The position numbers and the translations under genes are program-made. This document shows positions 12,687 through 55,020 of a stretch of DNA of 64,000 nucleotides, one piece after another. This DNA comes from an uncultured Bacilli bacterium (GTDB lineage: Bacteria > Bacillota_I > Bacilli_A > RF39 > UBA660). Below the pieces are notes generated by a model. That model had not been told where the DNA came from, searched no databases, and was given only the letters and a program-made list of their open reading frames with translations. The DNA lies in NCBI GenBank assembly GCA_934085825.1, contig CAKOHR010000001.1, positions 64,379-128,378 of the forward strand. Reading direction: 5' to 3'. Every line of letters starts with the position of its first letter. Position 1 is the stretch's first letter.

Positions 12687-14648
12687 ATGGACAGAATACG
12701 TGAAAAAATAAAGAAAATCCTTAATAAGGACGTAACAAGTCTTTTAAATAAACATAAAATTCTACTGGTAAGCATAGCTATAGTAGTTATTTTGTCGTGC
12801 GTTGGATTAATAGTTTCGTACGCATTTTATCAAGTTGTAGATACGACCCCAGTGATCTTGAGTACGACACCACAGATAGCAGATTTAGAAGTCAGGATTA
12901 TGGCAGAAGAAAGAGATACTAGTGGTAATGGGCTTAATAGTTATGCTATTTATCCATATATACCAAAAGCTGGATATAAATATGATGCTGGTATGAGTTA
13001 TTGTACAAATGGAAGTACTATTAATTACGATGCAAGTACTTATGATGCCAGTATAAATGCTACCGGGCATGATGTTTGTTATTTATATTTTAAATCAACA
13101 GCAAGCTTAGATATAACTTTAGAAGTTTATGCGGAAAATGTAGATAGTGATGGGGTTGGTAACGGAGAATATACAAAATTAGAAACTACATCTTTGCCAT
13201 CAATTGGATATGAACTTAATAGTAGTAAATCTTATTGTGTGTATGCAAATGATGAAAGTACTCATGTAACTGATACTACAGTTTCTTATAATTCTGATAA
13301 ACAAAAATTTACAGTAAACGCTAGAAAAAAAGGTGCAATTTGTAGGGCTTATATGGATGCAATGGATGTAGATATTGCTCTTAAAATATTTGTTCAAGCT
13401 AAGAAGGGCTCATCAACATATTATGAAGTTGATAAAATACCTGTAACTAGTTTCTATGCACTGAATACTGACAAGTCGGCGTGTACAGGTACATCGACAA
13501 TGTCAATTAAAAATCAAAAAGTTGTGATAGCAGCAACAAATAGAACAAATTGTGTTGCTTATTTAGATGTTTCTTCAGGCCCCTTTATAGAAAGCATGAG
13601 AGTTACAAATTCAGGAACAAGTGCAACAATTACACTTGGAAATAGTAATTTAGGAACAACGCCATCAACATATTATTATTCAAATGATGGTGGAAAAAAC
13701 TATGCAACAAGTACAAGTAACACATATACATTTACAAGTCAAGCAAATCCAAGTTATGCATATAAAGCATATAGTGCAGATGCATCAGGAAATACATCAA
13801 GAGTATTCGAAACATCAACTTATGGATATTATGGATTAGTAGATTATTCAAACCAAATACAGACTAAGACAATTACAGAATCTGGTTATTACAAATTAGA
13901 AACTTGGGGAGCTCAAGGCGGTGGAGATACTAAGTATGTTGGTGGATATGGTGGATATTCGGTTGGATATATTTATTTAAATCCAAATTCAACATTATAT
14001 CTTGCTATAGGTGGAGCTGGTGGTTATTGTACTGGTTCAAGTTGTACTTCAGTAGGAGGGTATAATGGCGGAGGAAACTGTAAAGCATATACAGATTCAA
14101 CATCAACATGTGGAGCTGGTGGTGGAGCTACTCATATAGCGACAATTCCAGGAGTGCTGGCATCATTAGAAAATAATAAAGACAGTATTTTAATAGTTTC
14201 TGGCGCAGGTGGCGGAGGAAATTACTGTAATGACTGGAATTATGCTTCTGGTGGCATGGGCGGCGGATTTACTGGTGGATCTGCAATAGATTTAGGGGCT
14301 CCAGATTTTTCTGCTAATGGTGGTTTAGATACCAAAGGCGGTACACAAGATGGAGGTTGGAAGTTTGGTTTAGGTCGTGGAAGTGAAGGAGCTAACTTTG
14401 TTGGAGGCGGCGGTGGTTATTATGGCGGTAATTCAACATTTATAAATGGCTCTGGTGGTGGTTCTGGTTATATTGGCAATCCATTATTAACAAATAAATC
14501 GATGTATTGTTATAATTGTACAACTAGTAATTTAGAGACAACAAAGACAATTTCTACGACATGCCATAGTTCAAATGCTACTGAAAATTGTGCAAAAGAG
14601 GGTAATGGTTATGCTATTATTACCTATATTGGGAGTGATTTAAGTTAA
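12687..14648 (+). CDS. membrane-anchored glycine-rich surface/secreted protein, tandem paralog 1 of 2
   Basis: 653 aa. A cytoplasmic N-terminus, then a TM anchor ending in an SYAFYQV motif. Next comes a Cys-containing N-domain. The C-terminal half is a Gly-rich region (WGAQGGG, GGYGGY, GGGATHI, IVSGAGGGG, GGGGGYYGG, SGGGSGYIGNPLL), ending in the conserved tail CHSSNATENCAKEGNGYAIITYIG. Confidence 0.8.
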   Translation: MDRIREKIKKILNKDVTSLLNKHKILLVSIAIVVILSCVGLIVSYAFYQVVDTTPVILSTTPQIADLEVRIMAEERDTSGNGLNSYAIYPYIPKAGYKYDAGMSYCTNGSTINYDASTYDASINATGHDVCYLYFKSTASLDITLEVYAENVDSDGVGNGEYTKLETTSLPSIGYELNSSKSYCVYANDESTHVTDTTVSYNSDKQKFTVNARKKGAICRAYMDAMDVDIALKIFVQAKKGSSTYYEVDKIPVTSFYALNTDKSACTGTSTMSIKNQKVVIAATNRTNCVAYLDVSSGPFIESMRVTNSGTSATITLGNSNLGTTPSTYYYSNDGGKNYATSTSNTYTFTSQANPSYAYKAYSADASGNTSRVFETSTYGYYGLVDYSNQIQTKTITESGYYKLETWGAQGGGDTKYVGGYGGYSVGYIYLNPNSTLYLAIGGAGGYCTGSSCTSVGGYNGGGNCKAYTDSTSTCGAGGGATHIATIPGVLASLENNKDSILIVSGAGGGGNYCNDWNYASGGMGGGFTGGSAIDLGAPDFSANGGLDTKGGTQDGGWKFGLGRGSEGANFVGGGGGYYGGNSTFINGSGGGSGYIGNPLLTNKSMYCYNCTTSNLETTKTISTTCHSSNATENCAKEGNGYAIITYIGSDLS

Positions 14649-14649
14649 A

Positions 14650-14679
14650 AAATACATGAAGAAAATCATGTATTTTTTG
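14650..14679 (+). terminator. rho-independent terminator after paralog 1
   Basis: atacatga agaaaa tcatgtat hairpin plus TTTTTT. Confidence 0.5.
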
Positions 14680-14725
14680 GATTTTTCAATTGTGAAAAGT
14701 TATCCTATAAATGGAGTACGTTATA

Positions 14726-14754
14726 TTGACAAATGTAAGTTTTTATTTTAAAAT
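14726..14754 (+). promoter_or_regulatory. sigma-A-like promoter of Gly-rich paralog 2
   Basis: TTGACA, a 17-nt spacer, then TAAAAT. The leader (14733-14779) is identical to the paralog-1 leader. Confidence 0.45.
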
Positions 14755-14779
14755 TAGTAATAGGATAGGTTAGAGGTAT

Positions 14780-16726
14780 ATGGACAGAATACGTGAAAAA
14801 ATAAAGAAAATCCTTAATAAGGACGTAACAAGTCTTTTAAATAAACATAAAATTCTACTGGTAAGCATAGCTATAGTAGTTATTTTGTCGTGCGTTGGAT
14901 TAATAGTTTCGTACGCATTTTATCAAGTTGTAGATACGACCCCAGTGATCTTGAGTACGACACCACAGATAGCAGATTTAGAAGTCAGGATTATGGCAGA
15001 AGAAAGAGATACTAGTGGTAATGGGCTTAATAGTTATGCTATTTATCCATATATACCAAAAGCTGGATATAAATATGATGCTGGTATGAGTTATTGTACA
15101 AATGGAAGTACTATTAATTACGATGCAAGTACTTATGATGCCAGTATAAATGCTACCGGGCATGATGTTTGTTATTTATATTTTAAATCAACAGCAAGCT
15201 TAGATATAACTTTAGAAGTTTATGCGGAAAATGTAGATAGTGATGGGGTTGGTAACGGAGAATATACAAAATTAGAAACTACATCTTTGCCATCAATTGG
15301 ATATGAACTTAATAGTAGTAAATCTTATTGTGTGTATGCAAATGATGAAAGTACTCATGTAACTGATACTACAGTTTCTTATAATTCTGATAAACAAAAA
15401 TTTACAGTAAACGCTAGAAAAAAAGGTGCAATTTGTAGGGCTTATATGGATGCAATGGATGTAGATATTGCTCTTAAAATATTTGTTCAAGCTAAGAAGG
15501 GCTCATCAACATATTATGAAGTTGATAAAATACCTGTAACTAGTTTCTATGCACTGAATACTGACAAGTCGGCGTGTACAGGTACATCGACAATGTCAAT
15601 TAAAAATCAAAAAGTTGTGATAGCAGCAACAAATAGAACAAATTGTGTTGCTTATTTAGATGTTTCTTCAGGCCCCTTTATAGAAAGCATGAGAGTTACA
15701 AATTCAGGAACAAGTTCAACAATAACACTGGGAAATAGTAATTTAGGAACAACACCATCAACATATTATTATTCAAATGATGGTGGAAAAAACTATGTAA
15801 CAAGTACAAGTAACACATATACATTTACAAGTCAAGTAAATCCAAGTTACGCATATAAAGCATATAGCGCAGATGCATCAGGAAATACATCAAGAGTATT
15901 TGAAACATCAACATATGGATACTATGGATTAGTAGATTATTCAAATCAAATACAAACAAAAACAATTACTGAACCTGGATATTATAAATTAGAAACTTGG
16001 GGAGCTCAAGGTGGAGGATATGGTGAGTATATAGGTGGATATGGAGCATATGCAATAGGATATATCAGACTTGATGCTGGTCCAGTGTATATTAATGTTG
16101 GTGGAGCTGGTAAGAGTGGTGTACAAAGTTCAGAAGGAATTGTTACTTCTGGAGGGTACAATGGCGGTGGAGCCAACACATCAAACAGTTATGGTATTGG
16201 AGGTACTGGTGGTGGAGCAACTCATATATCATTACGTTCTGGGTTATTGCAAACATTAAGTGATTATTTAAATGAGTTGTTAATAGTCTCAGCCGGAGGT
16301 GGCGGAGGTTCACAAGAAATAGGCTATATAGGTTATTGTTATGGTGGATCTGGCGGCGGTATAACAGGAACAGTGGGCTCGTTAAATCCTAACAGAGGTG
16401 ATGGTGGTCCCGGACTTGCAAGTGCACCTACACAAAGCAGTGGTTATGCATTTGGAGCTGGTCAACCAGGCGTTGGTTGGCAAGGCGCAGGTGGTGGCGG
16501 TTATTATGGTGGCATAGCAGGATGCGGTGGATCTGGTGGTTCATCCTACATTGGCAATCCTCTTTTAGTTAATAAATCAATGTATTGTTATAATTGTACA
16601 ACCAGTAGTGCTGAAGCCACTAAAACTGTTTCAACAACATGTCATAGCTCAAATGCTACTGAAAATTGTGCAAAAGAAGGTAATGGTTATGCTATTATTA
16701 CCTATATTGGCGAAAGTTTGGATTAG
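14780..16726 (+). CDS. membrane-anchored glycine-rich surface/secreted protein, tandem paralog 2 of 2
   Basis: 648 aa. The first ~310 aa are essentially identical to paralog 1, and divergence grows after that. The Gly-rich half is strongly diverged, but the last ~50 aa are conserved. Confidence 0.8.
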   Translation: MDRIREKIKKILNKDVTSLLNKHKILLVSIAIVVILSCVGLIVSYAFYQVVDTTPVILSTTPQIADLEVRIMAEERDTSGNGLNSYAIYPYIPKAGYKYDAGMSYCTNGSTINYDASTYDASINATGHDVCYLYFKSTASLDITLEVYAENVDSDGVGNGEYTKLETTSLPSIGYELNSSKSYCVYANDESTHVTDTTVSYNSDKQKFTVNARKKGAICRAYMDAMDVDIALKIFVQAKKGSSTYYEVDKIPVTSFYALNTDKSACTGTSTMSIKNQKVVIAATNRTNCVAYLDVSSGPFIESMRVTNSGTSSTITLGNSNLGTTPSTYYYSNDGGKNYVTSTSNTYTFTSQVNPSYAYKAYSADASGNTSRVFETSTYGYYGLVDYSNQIQTKTITEPGYYKLETWGAQGGGYGEYIGGYGAYAIGYIRLDAGPVYINVGGAGKSGVQSSEGIVTSGGYNGGGANTSNSYGIGGTGGGATHISLRSGLLQTLSDYLNELLIVSAGGGGGSQEIGYIGYCYGGSGGGITGTVGSLNPNRGDGGPGLASAPTQSSGYAFGAGQPGVGWQGAGGGGYYGGIAGCGGSGGSSYIGNPLLVNKSMYCYNCTTSSAEATKTVSTTCHSSNATENCAKEGNGYAIITYIGESLD

Positions 16727-16728
16727 TT

Positions 16729-16995
16729 ATGAAATGTAACAGATGTGGTAGTCCGCTTCCAAATGACGGAATTGTTTGCAAATTTTGTGGAGCTTTAATG
16801 GATCAAAAACAAATAGCTTATCAAAATAAAATGAAAGATAAAAATAGTGAAAGAATTGTCCTTTTAAGTGAAAAATATGGACATAAAAACAATATAGAAT
16901 ATCGTGAAGTTAAAGAAAATAAACTTCTGGGATTAATAATTATTTCTATTGTACTTGTATTTTTAATAATTTTGACCATATTAATAAATATATGA
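16729..16995 (+). CDS. zinc-ribbon domain membrane protein
   Basis: CNRCGSPLPNDGIVCKFCG (CxxC-x11-CxxC) followed by a C-terminal TM helix. The start lies 3 nt after the paralog-2 stop. Confidence 0.55.
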   Translation: MKCNRCGSPLPNDGIVCKFCGALMDQKQIAYQNKMKDKNSERIVLLSEKYGHKNNIEYREVKENKLLGLIIISIVLVFLIILTILINI

Positions 16996-17007
16996 GGAAG
17001 TGGAAAT

Positions 17008-17520
17008 ATGTTATTACTTTGCTTAAAGATATTTTTTGCTAGAATTATTGATGTAACTTTAGGTACAGTGAGAACTGTACTAGTTGTAAGAGGCCGAAGA
17101 TTTACTCCGGCCTTTATTGCATTTTTTGAAGTACTTATTTGGTTTGTAATCGCAAGAGAAGCATTGACTACAGATGTAACATCTATTTTAATACCAATTT
17201 GTTATGCTGCTGGTTATGCAACTGGAACTTATATTGGCGGTTTTATTTCTAATAATTTTGTTGATGGATTAATTGGGGTTCAAGTAACTACTAAAACAGG
17301 TAAGTTACAAAAAATGCTTAATGATATTAGAAAAGAAGGATTTGGTGTTTCTGTAATTGAACTTAAAAATCCTCAGGATAATGAAGATAAAAGTATGCTT
17401 TTAATTCAATTAAACAAGTCAAAGTTAAAGGTTTTAACACACATTGTTAGAAGCCATGATCCAGATGCATTCGTGGTTATAAACGAAACTAAATATGCAC
17501 AAAACGGAGTTATTAAGTAA
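17008..17520 (+). CDS. UPF0316/DUF2179 family membrane protein
   Basis: The N-terminus (IIDVTLGTVRTVLVVRGRRFTPAFIAFFEVLIWFV) is typical of UPF0316 proteins of Firmicutes, followed by a C-terminal soluble domain. Confidence 0.7.
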   Translation: MLLLCLKIFFARIIDVTLGTVRTVLVVRGRRFTPAFIAFFEVLIWFVIAREALTTDVTSILIPICYAAGYATGTYIGGFISNNFVDGLIGVQVTTKTGKLQKMLNDIRKEGFGVSVIELKNPQDNEDKSMLLIQLNKSKLKVLTHIVRSHDPDAFVVINETKYAQNGVIK

Positions 17521-17639
17521 ATAAAAAAATGCTCATTTTTTTCTTGTATACTAGGAAAGTCATCCAAAATTTGCAAAATAAAATCTTGATATATGGCCGA
17601 ACATATGATATAATTTAATTGTCCAAGGGGGATTGATTA

Positions 17640-18782
17640 ATGAATACTTATAGAGCATATAAATTAAGAATTTATCCTACTGATTTACAAAGAGAATTAA
17701 TTGAAAAAACTTTTGGGTGTACTAGATATATTTATAATAATTTTCTTGCAGAAAGAAAAAATAAATATGAAGAAAGTAAAATAAAAGTGCATGTTTATGA
17801 ACAGCTAAAAGAACTAACAGATTTAAAAAGGGAAAAAGAATGGTTAAGAGAAATAGATTCATGTGCTTTGCAAGCATCAGTATATAATTTAGATGATGCA
17901 TTTCAAGGATTTTTTCATGGTAAGGGCTATCCAAAATTTATGGCAAAAGGTGTACATGAAAGTTTTAGAACTAATAATACATTAAGTACTTATAAAAATA
18001 AAAAGTATGAAACTATCAGAGTAGATTTTAATAAAAGAATAATAACTTTACCAAAATTAAAAGAAGTAAAGTTTCGAGGATATAGAACAACTAAGGAAAT
18101 CGTAGGAAAAATAAAATCAGCAACAATAAGCAAGGATGCTAACAAATATTTTGTAAGCATCTTAGTTGAAGTGCCATTTTTTAAATATTCAATAAATCCA
18201 ACATCAATCGTGGGATTAGATTTAGGAATTAAAGATTTTATAGTAACATCAAATGGAGAAAAATTAAAAAATGAAGTAAAGATCAATGAGAAGAGATTAA
18301 AAGGATTACAAAGATGGTTAGCTAGATGCAAACCAGGAAGTAAAAATAGATATAAAGTAAAATTAAAAATACAAAGATTATATTTAAAAATTAGGAATGC
18401 CAGAAAATATATGATATATAAACTTGCAAATAATATCTTAAAGGAAAATGACATTGTAGCTGTTGAAACACTAGCTGTTAAAAGCATGTATCAAGTCCAT
18501 AAAATAGCTAAACACTTAAAAAACATACCTATCAGTGAATTTATACGAGTCTTAAAATACAAAGCAGATTGGTTAGGTAAAAAAGTTATTAGTATAAATA
18601 AATATTATCCAAGTAGTCAATGTTGTAATAGATGTGATTATAAAAATGAAGAAGTAAAGGATTTAAGTGTAAGAAAATGGATATGTCCAAGATGTGGATT
18701 TGAACATGACAGAGATATAAATGCAAGTGAAAATATAATGTTTGAAGGATTGAAAATATATATGAAAGAGTGTATAATATAA
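17640..18782 (+). CDS. tnpB: TnpB (OrfB) RNA-guided endonuclease / IS605-family transposase accessory protein
   Basis: 380 aa. N-terminus MNTYRAYKLRIYPT...Q.ELIEKTFGCTRYIYN, a RuvC-like core (GLDLGIKDF), and a C-terminal zinc finger CCNRC...CPRCG. Confidence 0.85.
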   Translation: MNTYRAYKLRIYPTDLQRELIEKTFGCTRYIYNNFLAERKNKYEESKIKVHVYEQLKELTDLKREKEWLREIDSCALQASVYNLDDAFQGFFHGKGYPKFMAKGVHESFRTNNTLSTYKNKKYETIRVDFNKRIITLPKLKEVKFRGYRTTKEIVGKIKSATISKDANKYFVSILVEVPFFKYSINPTSIVGLDLGIKDFIVTSNGEKLKNEVKINEKRLKGLQRWLARCKPGSKNRYKVKLKIQRLYLKIRNARKYMIYKLANNILKENDIVAVETLAVKSMYQVHKIAKHLKNIPISEFIRVLKYKADWLGKKVISINKYYPSSQCCNRCDYKNEEVKDLSVRKWICPRCGFEHDRDINASENIMFEGLKIYMKECII

Positions 18783-18804
18783 ATAAGAACAAAATGAATA
18801 TAAG

Positions 18805-18916
18805 TAGGGTGGCGACCATCCGAAGTTGGTCTGCTTAAGAAACCTAAGGTTTCTGTGAAACAGAAAAGTGTTACCGTGAGGTAACACAGATACTTGAATT
18901 TCGTTAGAAATTTAAG
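18805..18916 (+). ncRNA. omega-RNA (reRNA) scaffold, 3' part, derived from the IS right end (probably begins inside the tnpB 3' end)
   Basis: The block lies immediately after the tnpB stop and ends at the element boundary. It contains the perfect hairpin gtgttacc gtga ggtaacac. A second stem shows compensatory substitutions relative to the copy at 34425-34536. Confidence 0.55.
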
Positions 18917-18970
18917 TTATGTTCTTTATAGTTGGAAGATATAGTATAATTTAAAGTAGAATGAAATGGG

Positions 18971-19909
18971 ATGATTAAATTGGCTAAGAAAAAACAAGTA
19001 GTTATTTCAGAGGAAGAATTAGTTCCTACAACTTTAGCTGTTGTAGAAGATAAAAAAAAGGCAAGTGTTTTTGGTGTAGTTTGGATATTTGTGATATTTA
19101 TTATATTTATTGCAGGTGTTATATTCTTACCAGATATTTCTGCTTTTATAAATAGTTATTTAAATCCTGATATAGTGGAACCAAGTACTTCAAATAACAC
19201 TACAAAAAAGGATGATGATACTAAAAATGAAGATAAAGTTAAGGAATATACTATTTCAGATGATTTAGTGATAAGTGAAGAAAGTTTTAAGATTAGTAAT
19301 TTTAGTATAGATAGTAATGGATTGATTAAATTTAAAATTACTAATTTAACTGCAGAAGTCTTAGAGTTAAAAGATTTACATTATTTTCTTAATCTTTATA
19401 ATGATAATAAGAAATTATTGCAAAGAATATATTTACAAGATATAGTTAATCCAAATTCTTCATTAGATGTAACATATGATCTTACTGATACTAATTCTAC
19501 GATAGTTTCATTGGTTAAAATTTCTGAAGCAGAGTATCCTTCTCATGTGGTAACTGTACCAGAAGAAGGTGTAGCGATGCTTACTTGTACAAAGGGTTAT
19601 GAAAAAATAGATTATGTATTAAATAGTAATAAAGCATATGTTACTAATTTAACTTATGAAGTTAATAGTGCTGATCCAAATTTTAATAGTTTGTATAGTA
19701 ATTATCAATTGTTACAAACAACTTATAACAATATTGAGGGAGTATCTTCTAATATAATACTTGAGAATGGATTATTAAGTTTTAGAACAATAATTAATTT
19801 ATCATCTGTAAAAAGTGAATCATTAAATTTAAAAACTTTATATCCATATGGAACTGATGCTAAAATTATTTATTTTGAAATGACAGCTAGTGGTTATACA
19901 TGTAATTAG
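18971..19909 (+). CDS. hypothetical membrane-anchored protein
   Basis: 312 aa. One N-terminal TM helix, then an extracytoplasmic N/S/T-rich domain. Directly upstream of scpA. Confidence 0.5.
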   Translation: MIKLAKKKQVVISEEELVPTTLAVVEDKKKASVFGVVWIFVIFIIFIAGVIFLPDISAFINSYLNPDIVEPSTSNNTTKKDDDTKNEDKVKEYTISDDLVISEESFKISNFSIDSNGLIKFKITNLTAEVLELKDLHYFLNLYNDNKKLLQRIYLQDIVNPNSSLDVTYDLTDTNSTIVSLVKISEAEYPSHVVTVPEEGVAMLTCTKGYEKIDYVLNSNKAYVTNLTYEVNSADPNFNSLYSNYQLLQTTYNNIEGVSSNIILENGLLSFRTIINLSSVKSESLNLKTLYPYGTDAKIIYFEMTASGYTCN

Positions 19910-19918
19910 GGAGGTTTT

Positions 19919-20641
19919 ATGAAACTTTGTATTAATGACTTTGAAGGCCCACTTGACCTTCTTCTTCATTTAGTTAAAACAGCTAAGATGGATATTTATG
20001 AAATAGATACTAAATATATAATAGATAAATATTTAGAATTTATAAAAAGTATTCCAAGTGATGATTTAGATAATGCTAGTGAATATTTAGTTATGGCTTC
20101 TGAATTAATACATTTAAAAAGTAGATTGTTACTTAATTTAAAAGATGATAATAATAATGATGAAGATGAATATTCAATTAATAGTGAAGAGGATTTAAAA
20201 AATAAATTACTTGAATATGAAAAGTATCAAAATTTGACTAGTGTTTTTAAAGAGTTAGAAGAAAAAAGAAGTGAAATTTATACTAAATTACCAGAAAACT
20301 TAAGTGAATATGTTGATAAAAAAGAAATTCTAGAAGGTAATATGGACGCTGAACTTTTAAAAGATGCATTAGTTGAACTTCAAAAAAGAATGAATTATCA
20401 AAAGCCAGTTAATACTAAGATTACTAGAAAAGAAATAAGTGTTGAAGATAGAAAAGAATATATTAGAAAATATTTAAGTAAAAGAAAAAATGTTAAATTT
20501 ACTGATCTTTTCGAAGAGTATACTAAAGATTTAATTGTGGCAACTTTTTTGTCAATTTTAGATATGTGTAAACAAAAAGAAATAACTTTAAAACAGGATA
20601 GTAATTTTGGAGAAATATATATAGAAAGAGTGAATTTATGA
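19919..20641 (+). CDS. scpA: segregation and condensation protein A
   Basis: N-terminus FEGPLDLLLHLVKTAKMDIYEIDTKYIIDKYLEFI is the kleisin ScpA signature. Confidence 0.85.
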   Translation: MKLCINDFEGPLDLLLHLVKTAKMDIYEIDTKYIIDKYLEFIKSIPSDDLDNASEYLVMASELIHLKSRLLLNLKDDNNNDEDEYSINSEEDLKNKLLEYEKYQNLTSVFKELEEKRSEIYTKLPENLSEYVDKKEILEGNMDAELLKDALVELQKRMNYQKPVNTKITRKEISVEDRKEYIRKYLSKRKNVKFTDLFEEYTKDLIVATFLSILDMCKQKEITLKQDSNFGEIYIERVNL

Positions 20642-21201
20642 ATAAAGAAGCAATTTTAGAAGGTCTTCTTTTTGTAGTTGGGGATGAAGGTATAACTTTA
20701 GATAATATTGCTGAAGTTTTAAATATAAAAAAAAATGAAGCACAAGAATTACTAAAAAAACTGCAAGAAGAATATAGTAAAGAGTCAAGAGGGATTAGAA
20801 TAAGTTATATTGGGGATGCTTTTAAACTAACTACTAAGGGAGAACATAAAGAATATTATCAAAAATTAATTACTACGAAGGGTACAAATACTTTATCAAG
20901 TGCAGCTTTAGAAACTTTAGCTATTATTGCATATAATCAACCTATAACTAGGGCAGAAGTAGATGAACTTAGAGGAATTGCAAGTATTAATATGATAAGA
21001 AAATTAATGGCTAAGGATTTAATTAAAATAAGTGGAAAAAGTAATTTACCTGGTAAACCTAATTTATATCGAACAACAAATGAATTTTTAGATTATTTTG
21101 GTCTAGCAACTATTAGTGATTTACCAGATTTGCCTATTAGTGATTCTAAGGAAGAAACTGAAGAAGAATTGTTTACATCAATTTATAAAGAAGAAAAATA
21201 A
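20638..21201 (+). CDS. scpB: segregation and condensation protein B
   Basis: Overlaps the scpA stop. Has ScpB-like winged-helix repeats (EAILEGLLFVVGDEGITLDNIAEVLNI; AALETLAIIAYNQPITRAEVDELRG). Confidence 0.85.
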   Translation: MNKEAILEGLLFVVGDEGITLDNIAEVLNIKKNEAQELLKKLQEEYSKESRGIRISYIGDAFKLTTKGEHKEYYQKLITTKGTNTLSSAALETLAIIAYNQPITRAEVDELRGIASINMIRKLMAKDLIKISGKSNLPGKPNLYRTTNEFLDYFGLATISDLPDLPISDSKEETEEELFTSIYKEEK

Positions 21202-21237
21202 CATATTTTTATAGATATAGTTCATATTATTAAATAG

Positions 21238-21771
21238 GTGATTTTAATGACTATGAAGAAAATAAAGGTAATAAATGTTATTTTTCTTTTTTTGTTATCT
21301 TTTTTATGGCACTTTATGTATGATTTAATACCTTGTAATTTTATTGCTTTGTTTTTTCCTGTTAATGAAAGTATTTGGGAACATATGAAAATAATTTATT
21401 ATTGTTTGTTACTTTCTTCGGTACTTGAATTTATTTTATGTCATAAATTTAAAATTAAAATATCAAATTTTTATATAAGTACAATGGTTAAATCTTTAAT
21501 GGGGGTAATTTTTTATCTTATAGTTTTTGTACCAATTTATAAATTAATTGGAGAGTCTATGTTTGTATCAATAGGTTTGATGCTTCTTATTTATATTTTA
21601 ATGGAGTTTATTAGTTATAGAATTTTGCAAAGTGAAGAGTTAAATATTAATATATTACCAGTAATAATTATTGGCCTTGGCATAATCTTATTTATTATTC
21701 TTACTTTCTATCCTTTACATAACTTTTTATTTTTTGATAATGTAAAATTTGGTTATGGAATTTTAAAATAA
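21238..21771 (+). CDS. hypothetical polytopic membrane protein
   Basis: 177 aa with about five hydrophobic helices. Confidence 0.45.
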   Translation: MILMTMKKIKVINVIFLFLLSFLWHFMYDLIPCNFIALFFPVNESIWEHMKIIYYCLLLSSVLEFILCHKFKIKISNFYISTMVKSLMGVIFYLIVFVPIYKLIGESMFVSIGLMLLIYILMEFISYRILQSEELNINILPVIIIGLGIILFIILTFYPLHNFLFFDNVKFGYGILK

Positions 21772-21794
21772 CCACATCAATTTAGATGTGGTTA

Positions 21795-22001
21795 TTACTT
21801 TTCAATGGAAACTTTAGAATCATTTTTATCATTTCCTTTTTCTATATTTTCAAGTGCATATTCACATGCTTGAATAACAAATCTAGAAAATGTTATATTA
21901 GTGTTCGATAATTCTTTTTCAATTTTATTAATTAATGGTAGAGGAAATCTTATTGTTTTATTTTCTGTTTCTCTTTTTTCTTCATTTAATCTAAATGCCA
22001 T
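21795..22001 (-). CDS. small hypothetical protein (possible ribbon-helix-helix-type DNA-binding protein)
   Basis: 68 aa from the ATG preceded by a GGAGG RBS. The tracked ORF extends further 5' but lacks an RBS there. Confidence 0.4.
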   Translation of the reverse strand: MAFRLNEEKRETENKTIRFPLPLINKIEKELSNTNITFSRFVIQACEYALENIEKGNDKNDSKVSIEK

Positions 22002-22174: not shown

Positions 22175-23353
22175 ATGAAAAAACATAAGAAATTATTTGT
22201 AACTTTAGGTGTTATTTTAGCTATAATAATTAGTTTCATATTTGGTTCAAAAAACGATGATGTTTATAAGGAGGATACTAAAACTAAAATTGTAAAAAGA
22301 AAAAATACATTATCAATGATGTTAGAAACTGAAGCTGGTTCAGGAAACTATGAAATGACAACACAAAGTGGGTGGCCAACGGATGGATATACTTTTAATT
22401 CAACATTATCAAAATGTGAAAATGGTGGTGAAGTTTATTGGGACGATTCAAGTAAGAAAGTGTTTATGAGTGCCAATATGTCTGATAAATGCTATGTGTA
22501 TTTTGACAAAACTCCAACTAGTTTAGCAGATTATGTAAAATCATTGTATACAGGAACACAAGGGGAAAATAATATTTATTATCATAATGGTACAATTGTA
22601 AGTAAGAATGAATTTACAGATGATAATAATACAACATATCCTGTTGGTACAATATTGGATGCAAATGATGGAAGTTATAGATATGCTGGAGCAAAGGAGG
22701 CAGTAAATAATTATGTCTGCTTGGACTCAAATGAAAATACATGTTCAAAGGCGAACCTTTTTAGAATAATTGGAGTATTTGATAATAAAGTAAAACTAAT
22801 CAAAGCAAAACCGATAGGTAGTATGGCATGGAACAGCGATGAGCTTAATGGTTGGGAAACGTCAAGCTTATATACATATTTAAATGGTGAATATTTAACA
22901 AGTTTAGGTGATCTAGCGAATAAAATAGATACAGCAACATGGGAAACTATTGGAAATACTGTAGAAAAAATATATGGTGTAGTACCAGCGATAACATATC
23001 AAAATGAAGTAGTAAATTCAGCAATAACAGATTATACATTTAATGCTAAAATTGGTCTAATATATTTATCGGATTTTGGATTTGCGGCAAGTTCAAGTGC
23101 ATGGTCAACAACATTAAATAATTATGAAAATTCGTCAATAACATCAGTAAATTGGATTGGTTCTAAAGAATGGACTATTACCCGTGTAGTAGAGGATGTT
23201 ACTTATGATTCTGCGTTCCTTACAGTTTACGGTGGCTTTGTGGGTGAACCGGTTAATTCTGACAATTATGTAAGTCCTTCTTTCTACCTTTCATCTTCAG
23301 TAACCTATGTATCGGGGAGTGGCAGCGCCAGCGACCCGATGGTAATAAACTGA
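22175..23353 (+). CDS. membrane-anchored secreted protein. Its N-domain is related to the Gly-rich paralogs, and its C-terminal domain is shared with 49832..51778
   Basis: TM anchor. SKCENGG...CYVYFDKTP resembles SYCTNGS...CYLYFKST of 12687/14780. The C-terminal region (NLFRIIGVFDNKVKLIK, KIGLIYLSDFGFAA, EWTITR, SPSFYLSSSVTYVSGSG..DP) is paralogous to the C-terminus of 49832..51778. Confidence 0.7.
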   Translation: MKKHKKLFVTLGVILAIIISFIFGSKNDDVYKEDTKTKIVKRKNTLSMMLETEAGSGNYEMTTQSGWPTDGYTFNSTLSKCENGGEVYWDDSSKKVFMSANMSDKCYVYFDKTPTSLADYVKSLYTGTQGENNIYYHNGTIVSKNEFTDDNNTTYPVGTILDANDGSYRYAGAKEAVNNYVCLDSNENTCSKANLFRIIGVFDNKVKLIKAKPIGSMAWNSDELNGWETSSLYTYLNGEYLTSLGDLANKIDTATWETIGNTVEKIYGVVPAITYQNEVVNSAITDYTFNAKIGLIYLSDFGFAASSSAWSTTLNNYENSSITSVNWIGSKEWTITRVVEDVTYDSAFLTVYGGFVGEPVNSDNYVSPSFYLSSSVTYVSGSGSASDPMVIN

Positions 23354-46538: not shown

Positions 46539-47771
46539 ATGAAAAAGAAAAAAATATTAACTATAACTACTATAATTGTTATAGTATTACTTGGTATAAC
46601 ATTATTTATATTTTTAGAAAAAAAGGATATTAAAGAAAAAGAATCTAGCAATATTCAAACTAAAGAAGAAAAAATAAACATTAAAGAAAATGTTGAAGTA
46701 GAAATTAATAGTGAAGTTTTAAATATTAAAGATTTTTTTAAAAACAGTAATTTTTCCGATGAAGAAATAAATTATTTTGAAAATGATAAGAAAATTAAAT
46801 TTGATACCAAATATAATAAAATAGGAAGTTTTAAAGTAGTAATAAAAATAAATGATAAAAATTATGAAACAACTTTAAACGTAGTAGATAAATTAGCACC
46901 AACATTAAAATTAAAAGAATTAACAATTACACTAGGTGATAAATTTGAAATAAATTCTTTTGTAGAATCTTGCACTGATAATAGCGAAGAAGATTGCATT
47001 TTATCATATAAAGAAAATAAAAAATACACAAAAGTGGGAACTTATGACGTAACTATCATTGCTAAAGATAAGAGTGACAATGTAGTAGAAGAGACAACAA
47101 AATTAATTGTCAAAAATAAAAAAACTACAAATGAAACTCAAACAAATAATAATAATAATAATAATAATAATAAAGTGAAGTTTGTCAAAGAAGAAACTGA
47201 ATCAGTAAAAGAAACAAAAGAATTAAAATATGGTACAATATTAAATTCATGGCACGTTAAAACATACAAGTTGTATAGCGATGGATCTAAAAAGACAGTT
47301 AATGAATATACACATTATGAAGTTGATGGTACTAATTTTAATGCCAAAACAAGTGATATGTTACCTGAAGCGATAGAAAACATGAATATTTATAAAAATA
47401 TTGTTAATGATATTGTAAAATATACTAATGAGTTTAGAACTGAAGCTGGTAAAGAGCCATTAACACTTGATGAAACATTAACAAAAGCAGCTATGGTAAG
47501 AGCAATAGAAATGGCTTACTCAGATAAATTTTCTCACGAAAGACCTGATGGAAATATGTGCTATTATATAATGCGTGATTTTGGCCAAGATATTTATGGT
47601 GTAGGTGAAAATATAGCAAGTAGACAACGTAGTGCCAAAGAAGTTTCATATGCATGGAAAGGTTCTCAAGGCCATTATGAAAATATGATTTCTTCTTCAT
47701 TTACCAGAATAGGTGTTGGTGTAATTAATTTTTATGGTACATATTATTGGGTTCAATTATTTCAGTATTAG
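46539..47771 (+). CDS. secreted CAP (SCP/PR-1-like, YkwD-type) domain protein with poly-Asn tract
   Basis: Signal anchor. C-terminal CAP signature (FSHERPDG, HYENMISSSFTRIGVGV, YYWVQLF). N9 run encoded by (AAT)9. Confidence 0.7.
   Translation: MKKKKILTITTIIVIVLLGITLFIFLEKKDIKEKESSNIQTKEEKINIKENVEVEINSEVLNIKDFFKNSNFSDEEINYFENDKKIKFDTKYNKIGSFKVVIKINDKNYETTLNVVDKLAPTLKLKELTITLGDKFEINSFVESCTDNSEEDCILSYKENKKYTKVGTYDVTIIAKDKSDNVVEETTKLIVKNKKTTNETQTNNNNNNNNNKVKFVKEETESVKETKELKYGTILNSWHVKTYKLYSDGSKKTVNEYTHYEVDGTNFNAKTSDMLPEAIENMNIYKNIVNDIVKYTNEFRTEAGKEPLTLDETLTKAAMVRAIEMAYSDKFSHERPDGNMCYYIMRDFGQDIYGVGENIASRQRSAKEVSYAWKGSQGHYENMISSSFTRIGVGVINFYGTYYWVQLFQY
47145..47171. repeat. (AAT)9 trinucleotide microsatellite inside the CAP-domain gene
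   Basis: Nine perfect AAT units encoding Asn9. Confidence 0.9.
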
Positions 47772-49146: not shown

Positions 49147-49467
49147 ATGGAATTATTTTGTATTAAACCATATGAATTAAGTTATTGTAATGGTTTTTCT
49201 TATTATACTGATGGAAGATATATTAATGTTAGTCCACATGTAAATAAAAAAGAAAAAGATTTTCTATTTTTTAAAAAAGAAGAAAAGTTACTTCATTGGT
49301 TTTATTTAAATGATGGTATACCAATTCCTAAAGTATATCGTGTAAAATATTGGGAGTCTTTCAAAGGTTTAAATGATGCAATTGAAATAACTATATTACA
49401 AACACAACACATGAAATTTATACTTTATGGAATAAAGCGTACAATCTTGAGTATGATTTTGATTTGA
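49147..49467 (+). CDS. hypothetical protein
   Basis: 106-aa ORF with no recognisable motifs. Confidence 0.3.
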   Translation: MELFCIKPYELSYCNGFSYYTDGRYINVSPHVNKKEKDFLFFKKEEKLLHWFYLNDGIPIPKVYRVKYWESFKGLNDAIEITILQTQHMKFILYGIKRTILSMILI

Positions 49468-49742
49468 GTGAAAAATATCAAAAAGATATTTAGAAAGAAA
49501 GTCCGATTAGTTTTTTAAATCTTTTACCATATTTTAAAGAATTTAAAAGAAGGGGTATCATATTTAAAAATGATGCATTAAATAATGAAATTACTTTGGA
49601 AAGTAATGAGGATATTTTTGATGCAGTTTGTGATATTGAATTTGAATCACAAATGATAAGAGATAAGGAAGTAATATTAAATAGAATAAATCCAAAGTAT
49701 AAAATAATTAGTTGGTTCTAAAATAATTGCGTTAAGCAGTCG

Positions 49743-49760
49743 TTTTTTTTTTTTTTTTTT
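49743..49760. repeat. T18 homopolymer tract about 70 nt upstream of the 49832 start
   Basis: 18 consecutive T on the plus strand. Confidence 0.9.
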
Positions 49761-49831
49761 GATGTAAACTTAGTATATAATATGATAAAACACGTGTGTG
49801 ATGTTGTCATGATAAGGAGAATAGGGATATT

Positions 49832-51778
49832 ATGAATAGTAGTAACAGAAAAAATATGATATTAAGTGGAGTAGCAATTACTCTTTTAGTTGCCTTAATT
49901 ATTGGAGCAACTTATGCCTATTTTGCAGCACAAACAGGTAACCCAGCATCAGCAGACATCAGAATAAATGCAAATACGGTTGATACATTAACATTTGCAA
50001 GTGGTGATCCAATATCCTTTAGTATTAATCAAGAAAATTTTGCTGAGGGTACTGGTAATCAAACAGGAAGTACATATGCAAGTGCAATACTTACGGCAAA
50101 TAATAAAACAAACACTGCGACAGAACATTATTATTTATATTTAAATATAGAAAATAATACATTTAATTATTCAATTAATAGTGACACTCCCGAAATAATA
50201 ATGACAATAACGGATAATGTTGGAAATGAAGTAACAGACTTAGTTGGGCTTACATATGTAACAGCAACTGGTGCTGATGGAAACCAAGTAAAAGGATATG
50301 ATATAACAAATAAAAATGGTTTATTTATATTATTTAGAGATAGAGAAATTACAACGACATCAACTAAAGAAGAAAGATGGAATGTAAAAGTAACATTTAT
50401 AAATTATAATGAGAATCAAGCAGCAAATGCTGGAAAAAGTATGAGTGCAAAATTAATAATTAGAAAAAATGAATTTAATTATAATATTTCTAAGGCGTGT
50501 AGTAATGGCGAAAAATTATCTGATTGCATAATTTCACTTAGTGAAAAAGATATAGCAGGTGCTACAAAAGTATATCACCATGATGCAAATCTTGCATATG
50601 GAGCCGGAGATAATTCATATAGGTTTGCTGGAGGAGGACATTCAGATTATTATGTATGTAAATATGATGGTAATGATGTGATGAATACAAATGGGGAAAA
50701 AACTCTACCTGAAGTAGATTGTTCAAATATTTACAAGGTGACATATGGAGCTGAGATTCAGTATGCAGATAATTCATATAGTACAGTTTTTATAAATAAG
50801 AAAACAGTAAATTGGGATAGTACAAATAGTAAATGTGTTACTTCATCAGGTGATGATGTTAAATCATATGAAAGTGGTACAGTAACACAAGATGCGTGTA
50901 CCGGAACAGCCTATTATGTGACAATTTACGGTGGATACTGGTTAGGAATAGAAGAGGTAGGCGCTGGAGAAGAAGTATTAGTCGGATATGCCGAAAGTGA
51001 AGTTAATAATTTTGTGTGTTTTGGTTCTAATGAAGCATTATGTCCAACAGATAACTTATACAGAATAATTGGAGTAATAGATGGCAAAGTAAAATTAATA
51101 AAATATGATTATGCAACTAGTAGCTTACTTGGAACAGATGGAGAATATGCCAAATATGGAGGAGAATATAGCAAATATTATAAAGGAAATTTAACAACAA
51201 TGGATTGGTATTACTGGAATAATGATAGTAACACTTGGAGTACTAGTTTACTAAATAAGACAAATTTAAACACAAATTTTATTAATAATATGGAAAATGA
51301 ATGGATAAAAAAAATCGCTACAACAATATGGAAGGTTGGTGGAAATTCATATCAAAAAATAAAATTAGCAATTCCAACAATAGCATATCAAAATGAAATT
51401 GTAAGCCCAGATCCAACAAGTACATCAACAACAGGAGAAACAGTATACACAGCCAAAATAGGATTGATGTACGCATCAGATTATGGATTTGCAGCAGGTC
51501 CGAGTGCATGGACAACAACTTTATGGGATTATGGTGAAAATGATGAATCTGGAAAATTGATAAGATATGAAAATTGGATGTTTATGGGATATAGAGAATG
51601 GACCATAACTCGTCGAAATGATAAGTATAGTGTGGCTTTGGTGGAACGTGATGGTAAATTTAATGACACGGGGTATGGAAATAGCTGTGCGGTTCGTCCT
51701 GTTTTCTTTTTAGAAAGTTCGGTTGCATACGCTAGTGGTGATGGAACTTTAGAAAATCCAATTCGCCTCGGGGATTAA
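49832..51778 (+). CDS. secreted protein with a TasA/camelysin-type (SipW-cognate) signal peptide; its C-terminal domain is shared with 22175..23353
   Basis: N-terminus MILSGVAITLLVALIIGATYAYFAAQTG matches the GxTxAYF class of SipW-processed signal peptides. C-terminal motifs (NLYRIIGVIDGKVKLIK, KIGLMYASDYGFAA, EWTITR, AVRPVFFLESSVAYASGDG..NP) are paralogous to 22175..23353. Confidence 0.75.
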   Translation: MNSSNRKNMILSGVAITLLVALIIGATYAYFAAQTGNPASADIRINANTVDTLTFASGDPISFSINQENFAEGTGNQTGSTYASAILTANNKTNTATEHYYLYLNIENNTFNYSINSDTPEIIMTITDNVGNEVTDLVGLTYVTATGADGNQVKGYDITNKNGLFILFRDREITTTSTKEERWNVKVTFINYNENQAANAGKSMSAKLIIRKNEFNYNISKACSNGEKLSDCIISLSEKDIAGATKVYHHDANLAYGAGDNSYRFAGGGHSDYYVCKYDGNDVMNTNGEKTLPEVDCSNIYKVTYGAEIQYADNSYSTVFINKKTVNWDSTNSKCVTSSGDDVKSYESGTVTQDACTGTAYYVTIYGGYWLGIEEVGAGEEVLVGYAESEVNNFVCFGSNEALCPTDNLYRIIGVIDGKVKLIKYDYATSSLLGTDGEYAKYGGEYSKYYKGNLTTMDWYYWNNDSNTWSTSLLNKTNLNTNFINNMENEWIKKIATTIWKVGGNSYQKIKLAIPTIAYQNEIVSPDPTSTSTTGETVYTAKIGLMYASDYGFAAGPSAWTTTLWDYGENDESGKLIRYENWMFMGYREWTITRRNDKYSVALVERDGKFNDTGYGNSCAVRPVFFLESSVAYASGDGTLENPIRLGD

Positions 51779-51837: not shown

Positions 51838-51861
51838 CACTTGTCAAAAGTGCTTTTTTTT
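51838..51861 (+). terminator. rho-independent terminator after 49832..51778
   Basis: cactt gtcaa aagtg hairpin plus T8. Confidence 0.5.
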
Positions 51862-51880: not shown

Positions 51881-51957
51881 GGCGAGATAGCTCAGCTGGC
51901 TAGAGCATCCGGTTCATACCCGGCAGGTCGAGAGTTCGAATCTCCCTCTCGCTACCA
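51881..51957 (+). tRNA. tRNA-Met (anticodon CAT; could alternatively be the lysidine-modified tRNA-Ile2)
   Basis: GGCGAGATAGCTCAGCTGGCTAGAGC ... anticodon loop TTCATAC ... GGTCGAGAGTTCGAATCTCCC, with encoded CCA. Confidence 0.85.
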
Positions 51958-52235: not shown

Positions 52236-53853
52236 TTGTAAGTTCCCGTTTAAGTTAAAATGGGAATTAAGTCTTTAACAAAAGAAAATGAACATGATAT
52301 AATATGACTATTACCTTGGGGATAAGGCAACGCTGAGGAGCGACCTGAGCACTTGGTAATGCTATGCAAAAAGAAGCAAATCTTATATTCAAATGAGATG
52401 CTTCTCTTTTTTTGTTTCTTTTTTGCTAGCAATAATGCGTTAAACCTCGGGGTTTGGGGCAGAGCCCCATTTGCAATTTCATCTTATTTTTTGTAAAATA
52501 TACACTTGTGGTTTGTTTGTCAATCAGGGAGGAAAAAATATAATGACAACAAATTATGTTCATTTAAATAAAGAACAAAGAAGCACTATTGAATATTTAA
52601 TTAGTCAAGGTCATAATTTTACATACATAGCAAATGCAATTAAAGTGGATAGAACCACAATATCTAAAGAGATTAAAAGAAACAGATATGTTAAAAATAG
52701 TCCGTTTTCTGAATATAGTAAAACAGGCATTGAAAGAGCATCTAAATCTTGTGCAATTTTATCTAAACCACCATATTGTTGTAACAATTGTAAAAATAAA
52801 AGTTTTTGCACTAAAGCACATTTATATTATAATGCATCCAAGGCACAAAAACACTATGAACAACAGTTAGTTGAAACAAGACAAGGGTTAGATATTACTA
52901 AAGAGGAAATAGATGAAATAAATGAAATAAATAGAATAATTATTCCTTTAGTAAAGAATAAAAAGCAAAGTATTAATCAAGTATTTGCTAATCATTCTGA
53001 TATTTTAAATATGTCAAAGCCAACATTTTATAAAAACGTTGATTTACAAGTAATTATGCTTACTAATCTGGATTTGCCAAAGAAAGTAAAGTATAAAAAA
53101 AGAAAAGAAAACAATAACAAACAATAAAAAAAGCACTTGCTTTATCAATTGGAAGAACGTTTGAAGATTATGTTATAAAAATTGAAAAAGAAAAAAATTT
53201 AAATATATGGCAACTAGACACAGTTATTGAAAAAAATTCTGATAGCAAAGTATTAATGACTTTCTTATTTGTTAAAACCAACTATATGGTTATTAGATTA
53301 CTAGATAAAAAATGCATTGAATGTGTAGATAAGGAGTTTGACAAAATTAGAAACTCTTTTGGAAGCGATGGATACAAAAAATATGTTGAAGCAATTTTAA
53401 CTGATAATGGTACAGAGTTTTTTGATCCGATTCATTTAGAAAATGATTTAGACACTGGGGAAAAATTAACTTCACTTTATTATTGTCACCCGAATTCGCC
53501 GGAAGAAAAATCTGAAATAGAATGTAATCATAAATATATAAGATATTTTCTACCAAAATCATCTAGTTTTGAAACATTAACAAAAGAACAGGTCAAAGAA
53601 ATCGAAGACAACATCAACAATGTACCTAGAGAAATATTAGGAGATAAGTCTCCATATGAACTTACAAAGAAAATGTATCCAGAGTTAACTGAAATATTAG
53701 ATGCAAATTATATTGAGCCTGATGAAGTCACTTTAAATCCAGATGATATTTTCAAAAAAGATATCAAAACAAAAGAAGAAGATTAATTTCTCCTTCTTAG
53801 TTGGCAAACAAGCCACATTCAACAAAACATATAACATGTACGGGAACTTAGTT
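52236..53853 (+). mobile_element. IS30-family insertion sequence (boundaries approximate) inserted next to tRNA-Met
   Basis: Terminal inverted repeat core TAAGTTCCCGT at 52239-52249, with its reverse complement ACGGGAACTTA at 53840-53850. Encodes an IS30-type transposase. Confidence 0.55.
52543..53786 (+). pseudogene. IS30-family transposase interrupted by a frameshift in an A7 run (parts 52543..53127 and ~53118..53786)
   Basis: The N-terminal part MTTNYVHLNKEQRSTIEYLISQGHNFTYIANAIKVDRTTISKEIKRN is the IS30 HTH. After a frame change at 53126-53132, the DDE region (IWQLDTV ... LTDNGTEF) continues in another frame. Confidence 0.6.
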
Positions 53854-54105: not shown

Positions 54106-55020
54106 ATGAATTTCGGAGACAATTTAAAAAAATTAAGAACAAGTATAGGGATGTCACAAGAAAAACTAGCGGAAAAAGTTAATGTTTCAAGACAATCCGT
54201 AAGTAAATGGGAAACTGGTGATGCATATCCAGAAATGAATAATTTATTAGAACTATGTAAAATATTTCATTGTAAAATTAATGATTTAGTTAATGATAGT
54301 ATACTTGATGTAAATAATTTAGATGATGAAGTAAAAAGTAAGGTAATAAGTTTAAAAAAAGAAGAAAGTAAGAAAATGAAAATATTAAGTAAAATAATAT
54401 CTACATTTTCTAAAATAGGAAGAATTTTATGTTATGTTTCTATACCATTTGTTATACTTGCTATAATTATTATCCCATTTTTAGTAAGTGAATTAGAAGT
54501 TAAAAATAATGAAATTAGTATAAGCTCATCTGATAGTAAAATATCTATTTTGGATAAAGGTGATAAACTAGTGCTTAAAGCTGGTAATATAACTCTTGGT
54601 GAAACATCTAAAGATGTAGCTCAAACTAAAATAATTGATGTTTTAGAAAATAATAGTAAAGTTCTAGTTATAACTTATGTAGAAATAGGTTTTATTGTTT
54701 TAATTGTAACACTAGTTTTAATATCAATTATTCTAAAATGTTTAGAAACAATATTTAGAAATATAAATAAAGGTGATAATCCATTTACTTTAGAAAGTGT
54801 TCATCTTATTAAGAAAATGGCATACATGATGATTACAATAATTGTTATATCTAATCTCGGAGGTATGATATTTGAGATTTTACTTAACTCTGATTTAGAC
54901 ATGGAAATTGAAATTTTTGATTTAGTACAAATTTTATTCTTATTTAGTTTATCTTATATTTTTGAATATGGAAGGTTGTTAAGCATAGATAGAAATGCTA
55001 AGATATATGGAGATTTATAA
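54106..55020 (+). CDS. XRE-family helix-turn-helix regulator fused to a membrane domain
   Basis: LKKLRTSIGMSQEKLAEKVNVSRQSVSKWETG is an HTH_XRE. The C-terminal half has four TM helices. Confidence 0.65.
   Translation: MNFGDNLKKLRTSIGMSQEKLAEKVNVSRQSVSKWETGDAYPEMNNLLELCKIFHCKINDLVNDSILDVNNLDDEVKSKVISLKKEESKKMKILSKIISTFSKIGRILCYVSIPFVILAIIIIPFLVSELEVKNNEISISSSDSKISILDKGDKLVLKAGNITLGETSKDVAQTKIIDVLENNSKVLVITYVEIGFIVLIVTLVLISIILKCLETIFRNINKGDNPFTLESVHLIKKMAYMMITIIVISNLGGMIFEILLNSDLDMEIEIFDLVQILFLFSLSYIFEYGRLLSIDRNAKIYGDL

Follow-up and report, generated by a model that had tools for sequence, protein, structure and literature searches.

In a 64-kb window of contig CAKOHR010000001.1 (64,000 nt, the whole stretch analysed here) from an uncultured Bacilli bacterium, a gene encoding a 648-amino-acid (aa) protein was found behind an uninterrupted run of 18 thymines (T18). 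We consider it moderately probable that this gene combines a signal peptide of the class processed by SipW-type signal peptidases, a lectin-like adhesin as the exported product, and a promoter whose poly-T tract varies in length by slippage and thereby alters expression. The evidence concerns the tract and its conservation in a promoter cassette, the N-terminus of the protein, and the genomic context of its homologues, and it is presented in that order.

The initial annotation, made from the sequence alone, had placed a perfect T18 run about 70 nt upstream of the gene and proposed it as a candidate phase-variation switch. The run was present as described, ending 71 nt before the ATG start codon of a real open reading frame (ORF), and it was the sole homopolymer of at least 10 nt in the 64 kb, where the other A or T runs reached 9 nt at most; T runs of at least 18 nt have an expected number of about 1e-3 in the window when a first-order Markov model is applied. 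The comparison of related strains that the annotation had recommended showed differences in consensus tract length (18/19, 19/16 and 17/15). Among five assemblies encoding the identical protein, the 373-nt upstream region differed at the tract only, with T18 in four and T19 in one, and a comparison over 7.5-7.9 kb, with identities to the window of 100%, 99.92%, 99.63%, and 99.61%, shows that they come from at least four strains. The T19 assembly, L002, was separated from the window by 3 substitutions in 7.9 kb and by three indels at repetitive sites (one in an AAT repeat, one in the T tract, and one an insertion of 18 nt). Likewise, loci L106 (T19) and L116 (T16) differed by 9 substitutions in 1294 nt, and L059 (T17) and L063 (T15) formed another near-identical pair. 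A search with an exact DNA pattern spanning the tract gave no match in the metagenome_contigs collection.

The tract was also present in diverged members of the protein family. The closest homologue, P0002 (60-61% identical), is located in another genomic context, directly after rpoA-rplQ, and carries T20 at a distance of 68 nt from its ATG; the leader that comes next is clearly homologous. A metagenome scan provided 80 more family loci, giving 822 kb of related loci in total, and at the same position some of these carried T14, T15, T16, T17, T18 (three loci), and T19 runs, as well as a T8 version in L086 and an eroded, G-interrupted tract in L107, while contig L129 begins inside the tract. 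Thirteen of the 14 homopolymers of at least 10 nt in the 822 kb were T14-T20 runs at this cassette position, the remaining one being an A10. Long uninterrupted homopolymer runs are mutationally unstable. The persistence of the tract at one position in genes whose proteins share about 60% identity (as measured for P0002 and the window protein), together with its length differences, constitutes the comparative signature of a contingency locus. Single-assembly lesions were observed in three tract-bearing genes, namely a 1-nt frameshift in L106 (3109), an ACG in place of the ATG in L116 (2441), and an in-frame stop in L059 (3127), which correspond to either pseudogenisation or assembly errors.

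The alignment of 11 cassette loci (A6) revealed a conserved block of about 50 nt directly 3' of the tract, containing boxes a, b, and d at 4, 15, and 33 nt from the tract end (Table 1). Upstream of the tract, the flanks were of two types among the loci, and the window matched neither, so homology in its lineage starts at the tract. The invariant positions of box a are the most important ones in a -10 hexamer, and this box may represent a -10 element. Box b appears to be the best -10 candidate in this window; it reads TATAGT in six of the other ten aligned loci and TATAAA/TGTAAA in L072, L083, L106, and L116. Box d, GTG(T/C)GTGATATTGT, with eight invariant and three nearly invariant columns, is a putative extended -10-like element that reads TRTG-n-TATTGT, a form recurring 5' of a homologue embedded in the peptidase cluster described below. 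L107, which has neither an intact tract nor box a, retains an intact ORF together with the other two boxes, suggesting a core promoter at box b or box d, with the tract and box a serving as an upstream modulator. With box b as the -10, the tract would span approximately -29 to -46, and with box d approximately -54 to -71, which corresponds to the -35/UP-element zone. An RNA element in the leader was ruled out, as there was no match in Rfam and no conserved pairing or structure in the alignment.

Regarding the protein, its N-terminus, MNSSNRKNMILSGVAITLLVALIIGATYAYFAAQ, carries a basic n-region (R6, K7), hydrophobic residues 9-24, and GATYAYFAAQ at residues 25-34, as had been noted in the initial annotation. 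The GATYAYF segment agrees with the pattern of the signal class, composed of a basic n-region, a hydrophobic core, and G-[GA]-T-[WYF]-A-[AYF]-F, and in a six-frame translation of the window the loose GxTxAYF form was present once only. T27, A29, and F31 were invariant in an alignment of 64 homologues, whose motif variants follow [GTA]-A-T-[YF]-A-[YF]-F with one exception. The TIGR04088 model gave E values of 1 or less for 20 of the 27 N-terminal fragments scanned (25 family members and two other motif-bearing proteins; best value 7e-4). When the N-domain profile of the family was compared with TasA by hhalign, the alignment was confined to the signal peptide, pairing iigATYAYF with vgGGTWAAF (probability 4%). 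The TasA cleavage site has a Phe at P2', and its processing needs the archaeal-like peptidase SipW (PMC10269814). By analogy, the predicted cut in the 648-aa protein is A29|Y30, which would put F31 at P2', and SipW would carry out this cleavage in the present organism.

The strongest support for the signal class is the genomic association of two homologues, P0012 (57% identical) and P0004 (59%), with SipW: in both cases, the gene for an archaeal-type signal peptidase I lies 1-2 genes 5' of the homologue. The P0012 cluster, kept over several samples and strains (L012-L019), starts with a 181-aa degenerate SipW-like gene followed by genes for proteins of 308, 302, 506, and 366 aa (DUF2357) and the 190-aa peptidase, after which come those for 206 aa, the 643-aa family member, 195 aa (opposite strand), 233, 329, and 2469 aa. 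Among these, the 190-aa protein passed TIGR02228 with 75.8 bits against a cut-off of 51.85 and reached 65.9 bits on the SipW model NF046067, under the strict cut-off of 190. The 506-aa protein, without a family match, looks AAA-ATPase/McrB-like by eye, and the 206-, 195-, and 329-aa proteins bear SSTFAWF, ETYAKYS, and SSTYAWF, respectively, after hydrophobic stretches. P0004 belongs to this cluster as well and forms a tandem with a family member of 529 aa. Other species possess the cluster without a family member, indicating that the cluster gains and loses family genes. The cluster (L012, positions 3669-21812; also L018-L029, L032-L050, L052, and L133-L142) occurs in related gut Bacilli, where the 505/506-aa protein and the DUF2357 protein (366 aa) are always encoded directly 5' of the SipW-type peptidase and a motif-bearing protein of about 205 aa; the 195-, 233-, 329-, and ~2470-aa proteins come next in the clusters of several species. 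Additionally, a 380-aa IS605-family OrfB/TnpB encoded at 17540-18926 of the window has copies of 87-88% identity in loci L011-L016 of related metagenome-assembled genomes (MAGs), where they adjoin the SipW cluster or other family genes.

Several results weigh against this interpretation of the gene. The TIGR04088 match of the window protein (residues 15-34 on model positions 3-22 of 34; E 0.027) scored 14.6 bits, below the curated cut-off of 19 bits, the control TasA having reached 41.1 bits. The N-terminus thus matches the model that the initial annotation had recommended for this check, at a score under its threshold, and the assignment to the SipW-type class is largely supported by the invariant residues, the TasA alignment, and the peptidase beside homologues. 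The annotation had also found no sipW in the window, which was borne out by a search for the SGSMxP motif and by tblastn with the SipW-type peptidase of a relative; the latter is the wider search, given that the motif pattern does not cover the TESMVP form present in relatives. By tblastn, no gene of the cluster had a homologue in the window, and SipW was absent within 2.5 kb of all 80 closer-subfamily loci from metagenomes. The cognate peptidase is therefore assumed to be encoded elsewhere in the genome, and since the cluster is conserved across the clade, a SipW gene outside the window is likely. With respect to the promoter, a scan yielded 22 matches against 21.9 expected from shuffles and did not discriminate between the readings, and three -10-like boxes are conserved. 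With box b or box d as the -10, the tract has no role in the -35/-10 spacing, and an effect of its length on expression is therefore not guaranteed. The L107 locus, with its eroded tract, lost box a, and intact boxes b and d and ORF, shows that the tract is dispensable for keeping the gene. Three distinct strains, 99.6-100% identical, all carry T18, so the consensus length is fairly stable; moreover, the lengths are consensus values from short-read assemblies, in which a 1-nt difference at an 18-nt homopolymer can be an error. The phase-variation proposal was nevertheless strengthened by three length-variable lineages and by the position kept in diverged members. Finally, the AlphaFold2 model of the protein has a mean predicted local distance difference test (pLDDT) score of 67, corresponding to moderate confidence.

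The tract could instead be a static A+T-rich promoter feature without any switching, its length differences being due to neutral drift and assembly error, which we consider somewhat unlikely. Such a feature might be a UP-element-like or rigid poly(dA:dT) segment or a boundary insulating the cassette from upstream transcription, and it would be consistent with the T18 kept in three distinct strains, the modal lengths of 17-19, the T8 tracts 5' of canonical promoters in other family members (e.g., L077), the intact gene of L107, and the unreliability of short-read assemblers at long homopolymers. Unselected runs of 14-20 nt, however, decay fast, yet these persist across genes whose proteins share about 60% identity (as measured for P0002), and no comparable run occurs elsewhere in the 822 kb; in addition, differences of 2-3 nt between near-identical strains exceed typical consensus error, and the indels between the window and L002 fall at repeats only. 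A different mode of switching, quite improbable in our view, would use box a as the -10, a TTGC(TT)/TTGATG sequence at the upstream edge as a -35-like element, and the tract as the spacer between them, with a single ON length (~T13-T15) and the common T17-T20 being OFF. This model is reportedly that of the poly(A) promoters of the Mycoplasma hyorhinis vlp genes. The invariant T1, A2, A4, and T6 of box a are key -10 positions, TTGC abuts the tract in L051, L063, L070, and L086, and TTGCTT as the -35 with the T15 of L063 leaves a 17-nt spacer, all of which fit an on/off spacer. In contrast, the upstream edge in the window, CAGTCG, has no -35-like sequence, nearly all the sampled lengths would be OFF, and the loss of box a and tract in L107, where boxes b and d and the ORF were kept, hints at a core promoter lying further downstream. 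It is more likely that the tract would modulate the promoter from its upstream edge rather than set a spacer.

A role of the T run as the U-tract in an intrinsic terminator of the degenerate upstream gene has a very low probability, and this candidate was rejected. A weak hairpin, AUUGC/GCAGU, lies directly 5' of the tract, and the terminators of this genome look weak and A+T-rich, as after the 648-aa gene; however, the fold is no better than that of shuffled sequences (z = 0.06), the terminator scan was silent at the tract, rplQ in L051 appears to have its own hairpin and T-run about 60 nt upstream of the T20, and the upstream flanks differ between loci, with no common hairpin abutting the tract. 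A retro-element poly-A tail or insertion scar was also dropped, as the minus-strand A-run would follow the antisense of the gene. The upstream ORF itself (49147-49722 region, 106 aa) seems to run on in another frame to a stop at about 49720, approximately 20 nt before the tract, and is probably a frameshifted, decaying gene; it had no family match. As for the N-terminus, it is unlikely to be an uncleaved signal-anchor that tethers the protein by its transmembrane helix, with YAYF serving as an interface motif. Cleavage would release the protein, since LPXTG or another C-terminal anchor is lacking, and the window ORFs at 46539, 48440, and 22175 encode exported proteins with plain N-terminal anchors and no AXA site, which would favour tethering, together with the low TIGR04088 score and the lack of a SipW gene in the window. 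On the other hand, the T, A, and F residues are fixed in spacing after the helix and invariant in 64 homologues, which exceeds the needs of an interface motif; the small proteins encoded beside the SipW-type peptidase in relatives bear the same motif; and the paralogue at 22175 shares the C-terminal domain yet has no YAYF motif.

Beyond the predicted SipW-class signal peptide, the AlphaFold2 model comprises an N-terminal helix (5-35), a beta-sandwich (~50-215), a Cys-rich all-beta insert (~270-388), and a C-terminal domain (~392-648). The Cys-rich insert is missing from the members of about 525 aa, and those of about 770 aa are longer in the same central region. The fold of the C-terminal domain matches a solved DUF6273 domain, although the DUF6273 Pfam model (PF19789) gave no match to the target in either an E<=1 scan or an alignment scan; it matches 12 of the 64 homologues, with a best E of 1.4e-4. 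The mature domain had no match to the TasA/camelysin models (NF046066, Peptidase_M73) in Pfam, NCBIfam, and hhalign comparisons, and the hhalign comparison of the N-domain with the 206-aa cluster protein was not significant. The idea of a fibre or matrix component, which the initial annotation had derived from the signal peptide, calls for a correction: only the signal peptide aligns with TasA, and the mature protein looks more like a lectin-type adhesin. As modelled, the layout looks like that of a ligand-binding adhesin rather than a TasA-type fibre subunit, the binding function being predicted, and it is a speculative possibility that the protein rides on fibres of the small TasA-like proteins encoded beside SipW in relatives. 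The window also encodes a 392-aa paralogue (22175-23353) with a DUF6273-like C-terminal domain in common (38% identity over 263 aa), which has a plain N-terminal anchor and neither the YAYF motif nor an upstream T tract. Two tandem paralogues of 653 and 648 aa (12687-14648 and 14780-16726) are almost identical for the first ~400 residues and differ in the glycine-rich domain of the ALK/LTK type that forms their C-terminal part (PF12810, E 3e-33); in these, the N-terminal helix is followed by SYAFYQ, a looser relative of YAYF, and TIGR04088 gave no match.

The homologues of the 648-aa protein number more than 7,250 at E<=1e-3 and fall into length classes of ~525, 640, and ~770 aa, the central insert making the difference. 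The full-length protein had no match in Pfam at E<=1 or in NCBIfam, a search of the PDB sequences with the family profile gave none, and no account of this protein family or of the poly-T cassette was found in the searchable literature. The exact protein is encoded on 12 public contigs, which derive from metagenomes of the human gut, Hadza samples among them. MAG loci of related gut Bacilli carry sporulation and peptidoglycan genes. With a G+C content of 27%, the window probably belongs to an uncultured low-G+C Bacilli lineage of the human gut, and the 648-aa ORF probably encodes a surface or extracellular protein whose export is predicted. One member of a neighbouring peptidase family bears a 'Clostridium sp. 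CAG:609' name.

Table 1. Coordinates in the window of the 648-aa gene, its promoter cassette, and its predicted protein regions.
Feature	Position	Strand	Basis
T18 homopolymer, variable element of the conserved promoter cassette	49743..49760	+	Sequence; T19 in L002; T14-T20 in relatives
Box a, -10-like TAAACT (relatives TAAAAT/TATAAT), +5 to +10 after tract	49765..49770	+	A6 columns T, A,., A,., T invariant
Box b, TATAAT, +16 to +21 after tract	49776..49781	+	Sequence; A6
Box d, conserved block GTGTGTGATGTTGT (consensus GTGTGTGATATTGT), +34 to +47 after tract	49794..49807	+	A6
Shine-Dalgarno AAGGAG, 12 nt 5' of ATG	49814-49819	+	Sequence; (A)GGAG-type site in most aligned cassette loci
Coding sequence, predicted exported multidomain protein of a large unnamed family	49832..51778	+	ORF list; homologue search
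Predicted SipW-class signal peptide, residues 1-29	49832..49918	+	Motif GATYAYF at residues 25-31; cut by TasA analogy
N-terminal beta-sandwich domain, ~residues 50-215	49979..50476	+	AlphaFold2 model
Variable Cys-rich all-beta insert, ~residues 270-388	50639..50995	+	AlphaFold2 pLDDT ~85-93; length classes
C-terminal DUF6273 / C-type-lectin-like domain, ~residues 392-648	51005..51775	+	
Likely weak intrinsic terminator, CACTT/AAGTG stem then T8 (51854-51861)	51838..51861	+	Read by eye from sequence

The putative terminator sits between the 648-aa gene and tRNA-Met (51881-51957), and the terminator scan was silent there because the stem has fewer than three G-C pairs. Downstream of tRNA-Met, an IS30-like gene (HTH_38 match) is split into two ORFs (52471-53127 and 53256-53786), and the 18-nt insertion of L002 at 52912, which reads as a tandem ATGAAATAA repeat, lies inside it. 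Upstream, the gene for a CAP-domain protein (46539-47771) contains at 47144 a poly-Asn-coding AAT repeat that is 9 nt longer in L002, a second repeat-length polymorphism between near-clonal strains. In the gene for an HTH_3/DUF2975 protein (54106-55020), a stretch of ~460 nt (54146-54604) contains every substitution that separates L003 (6) and L004 (28) from the window, suggesting either a patch of recombination or selection for diversity in this membrane-bound regulator of the Xre type.

The mechanism that we propose is as follows. Transcription would start from the conserved cassette, with the poly-T tract as its upstream edge, and slipped-strand mispairing would alter the tract length, as the differences between near-identical strains indicate. 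A change in length would then shift the use of the promoter by RNA polymerase, heritably and reversibly. This effect would most likely be graded, as with the T-tract beside the -35 of Helicobacter pylori sabA, and less likely on/off through the -35/-10 spacing; in either mode, the population would hold cells with differing levels of the 648-aa protein. The N-terminus of the exported protein would be cut at A29|Y30 by an archaeal/ER-type signal peptidase I, by analogy with TasA.

The tract marks a conserved cassette-like promoter in prevalent, uncultured human-gut Bacilli, and existing metagenomic reads can directly address whether homopolymers tune a large family of lectin-like surface proteins. 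For a very large family that has had no annotation, the analysis also predicts export through a SipW-type peptidase and points to DUF6273, which a gut IgA protease carries as well, as a likely binding module. Invertible promoters account for most of the phase variation catalogued in gut commensals, and repeat-based contingency loci have been described chiefly in pathogens. As a tentative extension, the portable poly-T cassette may give individual members of this family, which counts more than 7,000 lectin-like proteins, a mutational dial of their own. The proteins would undergo SipW processing and be either displayed on TasA-like fibres or released with them, and gut Bacilli could then vary their adhesin set combinatorially by slipped-strand mispairing. 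If true, Gram-positive commensals would have an equivalent of the contingency loci known from Helicobacter, Neisseria, and Mycoplasma, with slippage switching in a niche where phase variation is ascribed mainly to invertons.

When compared to known systems, the vlp genes of M. hyorhinis, which reportedly have a poly(A) tract in the promoter of each gene (Yogev 1991; Citti and Wise 1995), are said to be similar in forming a surface-protein family, in occurring in low-G+C relatives of the Bacilli, and in each having a homopolymer of ~17-20 nt just 5' of the -10, an arrangement that reportedly permits independent switching and combinatorial surface variation. Unlike the 648-aa family, they are said to encode lipoproteins with repetitive coding regions and to have the tract, for which one length is defined as ON, in the interval from -35 to -10; in the present family, the tract is present in some members only, the genes are dispersed rather than clustered, and any on/off behaviour is hypothetical. 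The tapA-sipW-tasA operon of Bacillus subtilis (TIGR04088; PMC10269814; PMC9674648) has in common the G-x-T-[WYF]-A-[AYF]-F motif past the hydrophobic core, with an aromatic residue at P2', and in relatives the genes of the family likewise adjoin those for an archaeal-type signal peptidase and for small proteins bearing this signal. In contrast, the mature 648-aa protein shares no sequence similarity with TasA or camelysin, any resemblance being limited to the fold and generic; it is larger by a factor of 2.5, ends in a lectin-like C-terminal domain, and its gene stands alone in the window. Regarding this domain, the immunoglobulin A (IgA) protease of Thomasclavelia ramosa (9qa6; PMC12237041, PMC12402451) carries DUF6273 N-terminal to an M64 metallopeptidase, where it is dispensable for catalysis, whereas here it is C-terminal and unaccompanied by a protease domain. 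In H. pylori sabA, a T-tract of 13-28 nt next to the -35 varies between strains by slipped-strand mispairing, and each tract length realigns upstream A/T elements with the core promoter, giving a graded, 'rheostat' output (PMC4081817). That system differs in belonging to a Gram-negative pathogen, in encoding an outer-membrane adhesin, and in having a CT repeat in the coding region, which the 648-aa gene lacks; the poly-T cassette described here is common to many paralogues, and its promoter anatomy is a prediction from sequence. Both, nevertheless, have a long poly-T tract of strain-variable length (14-20 nt in the present family) that adjoins or overlaps the -35 region, as predicted in the case of the cassette, and in both the product is a lectin-like adhesin, again by prediction for the 648-aa protein.

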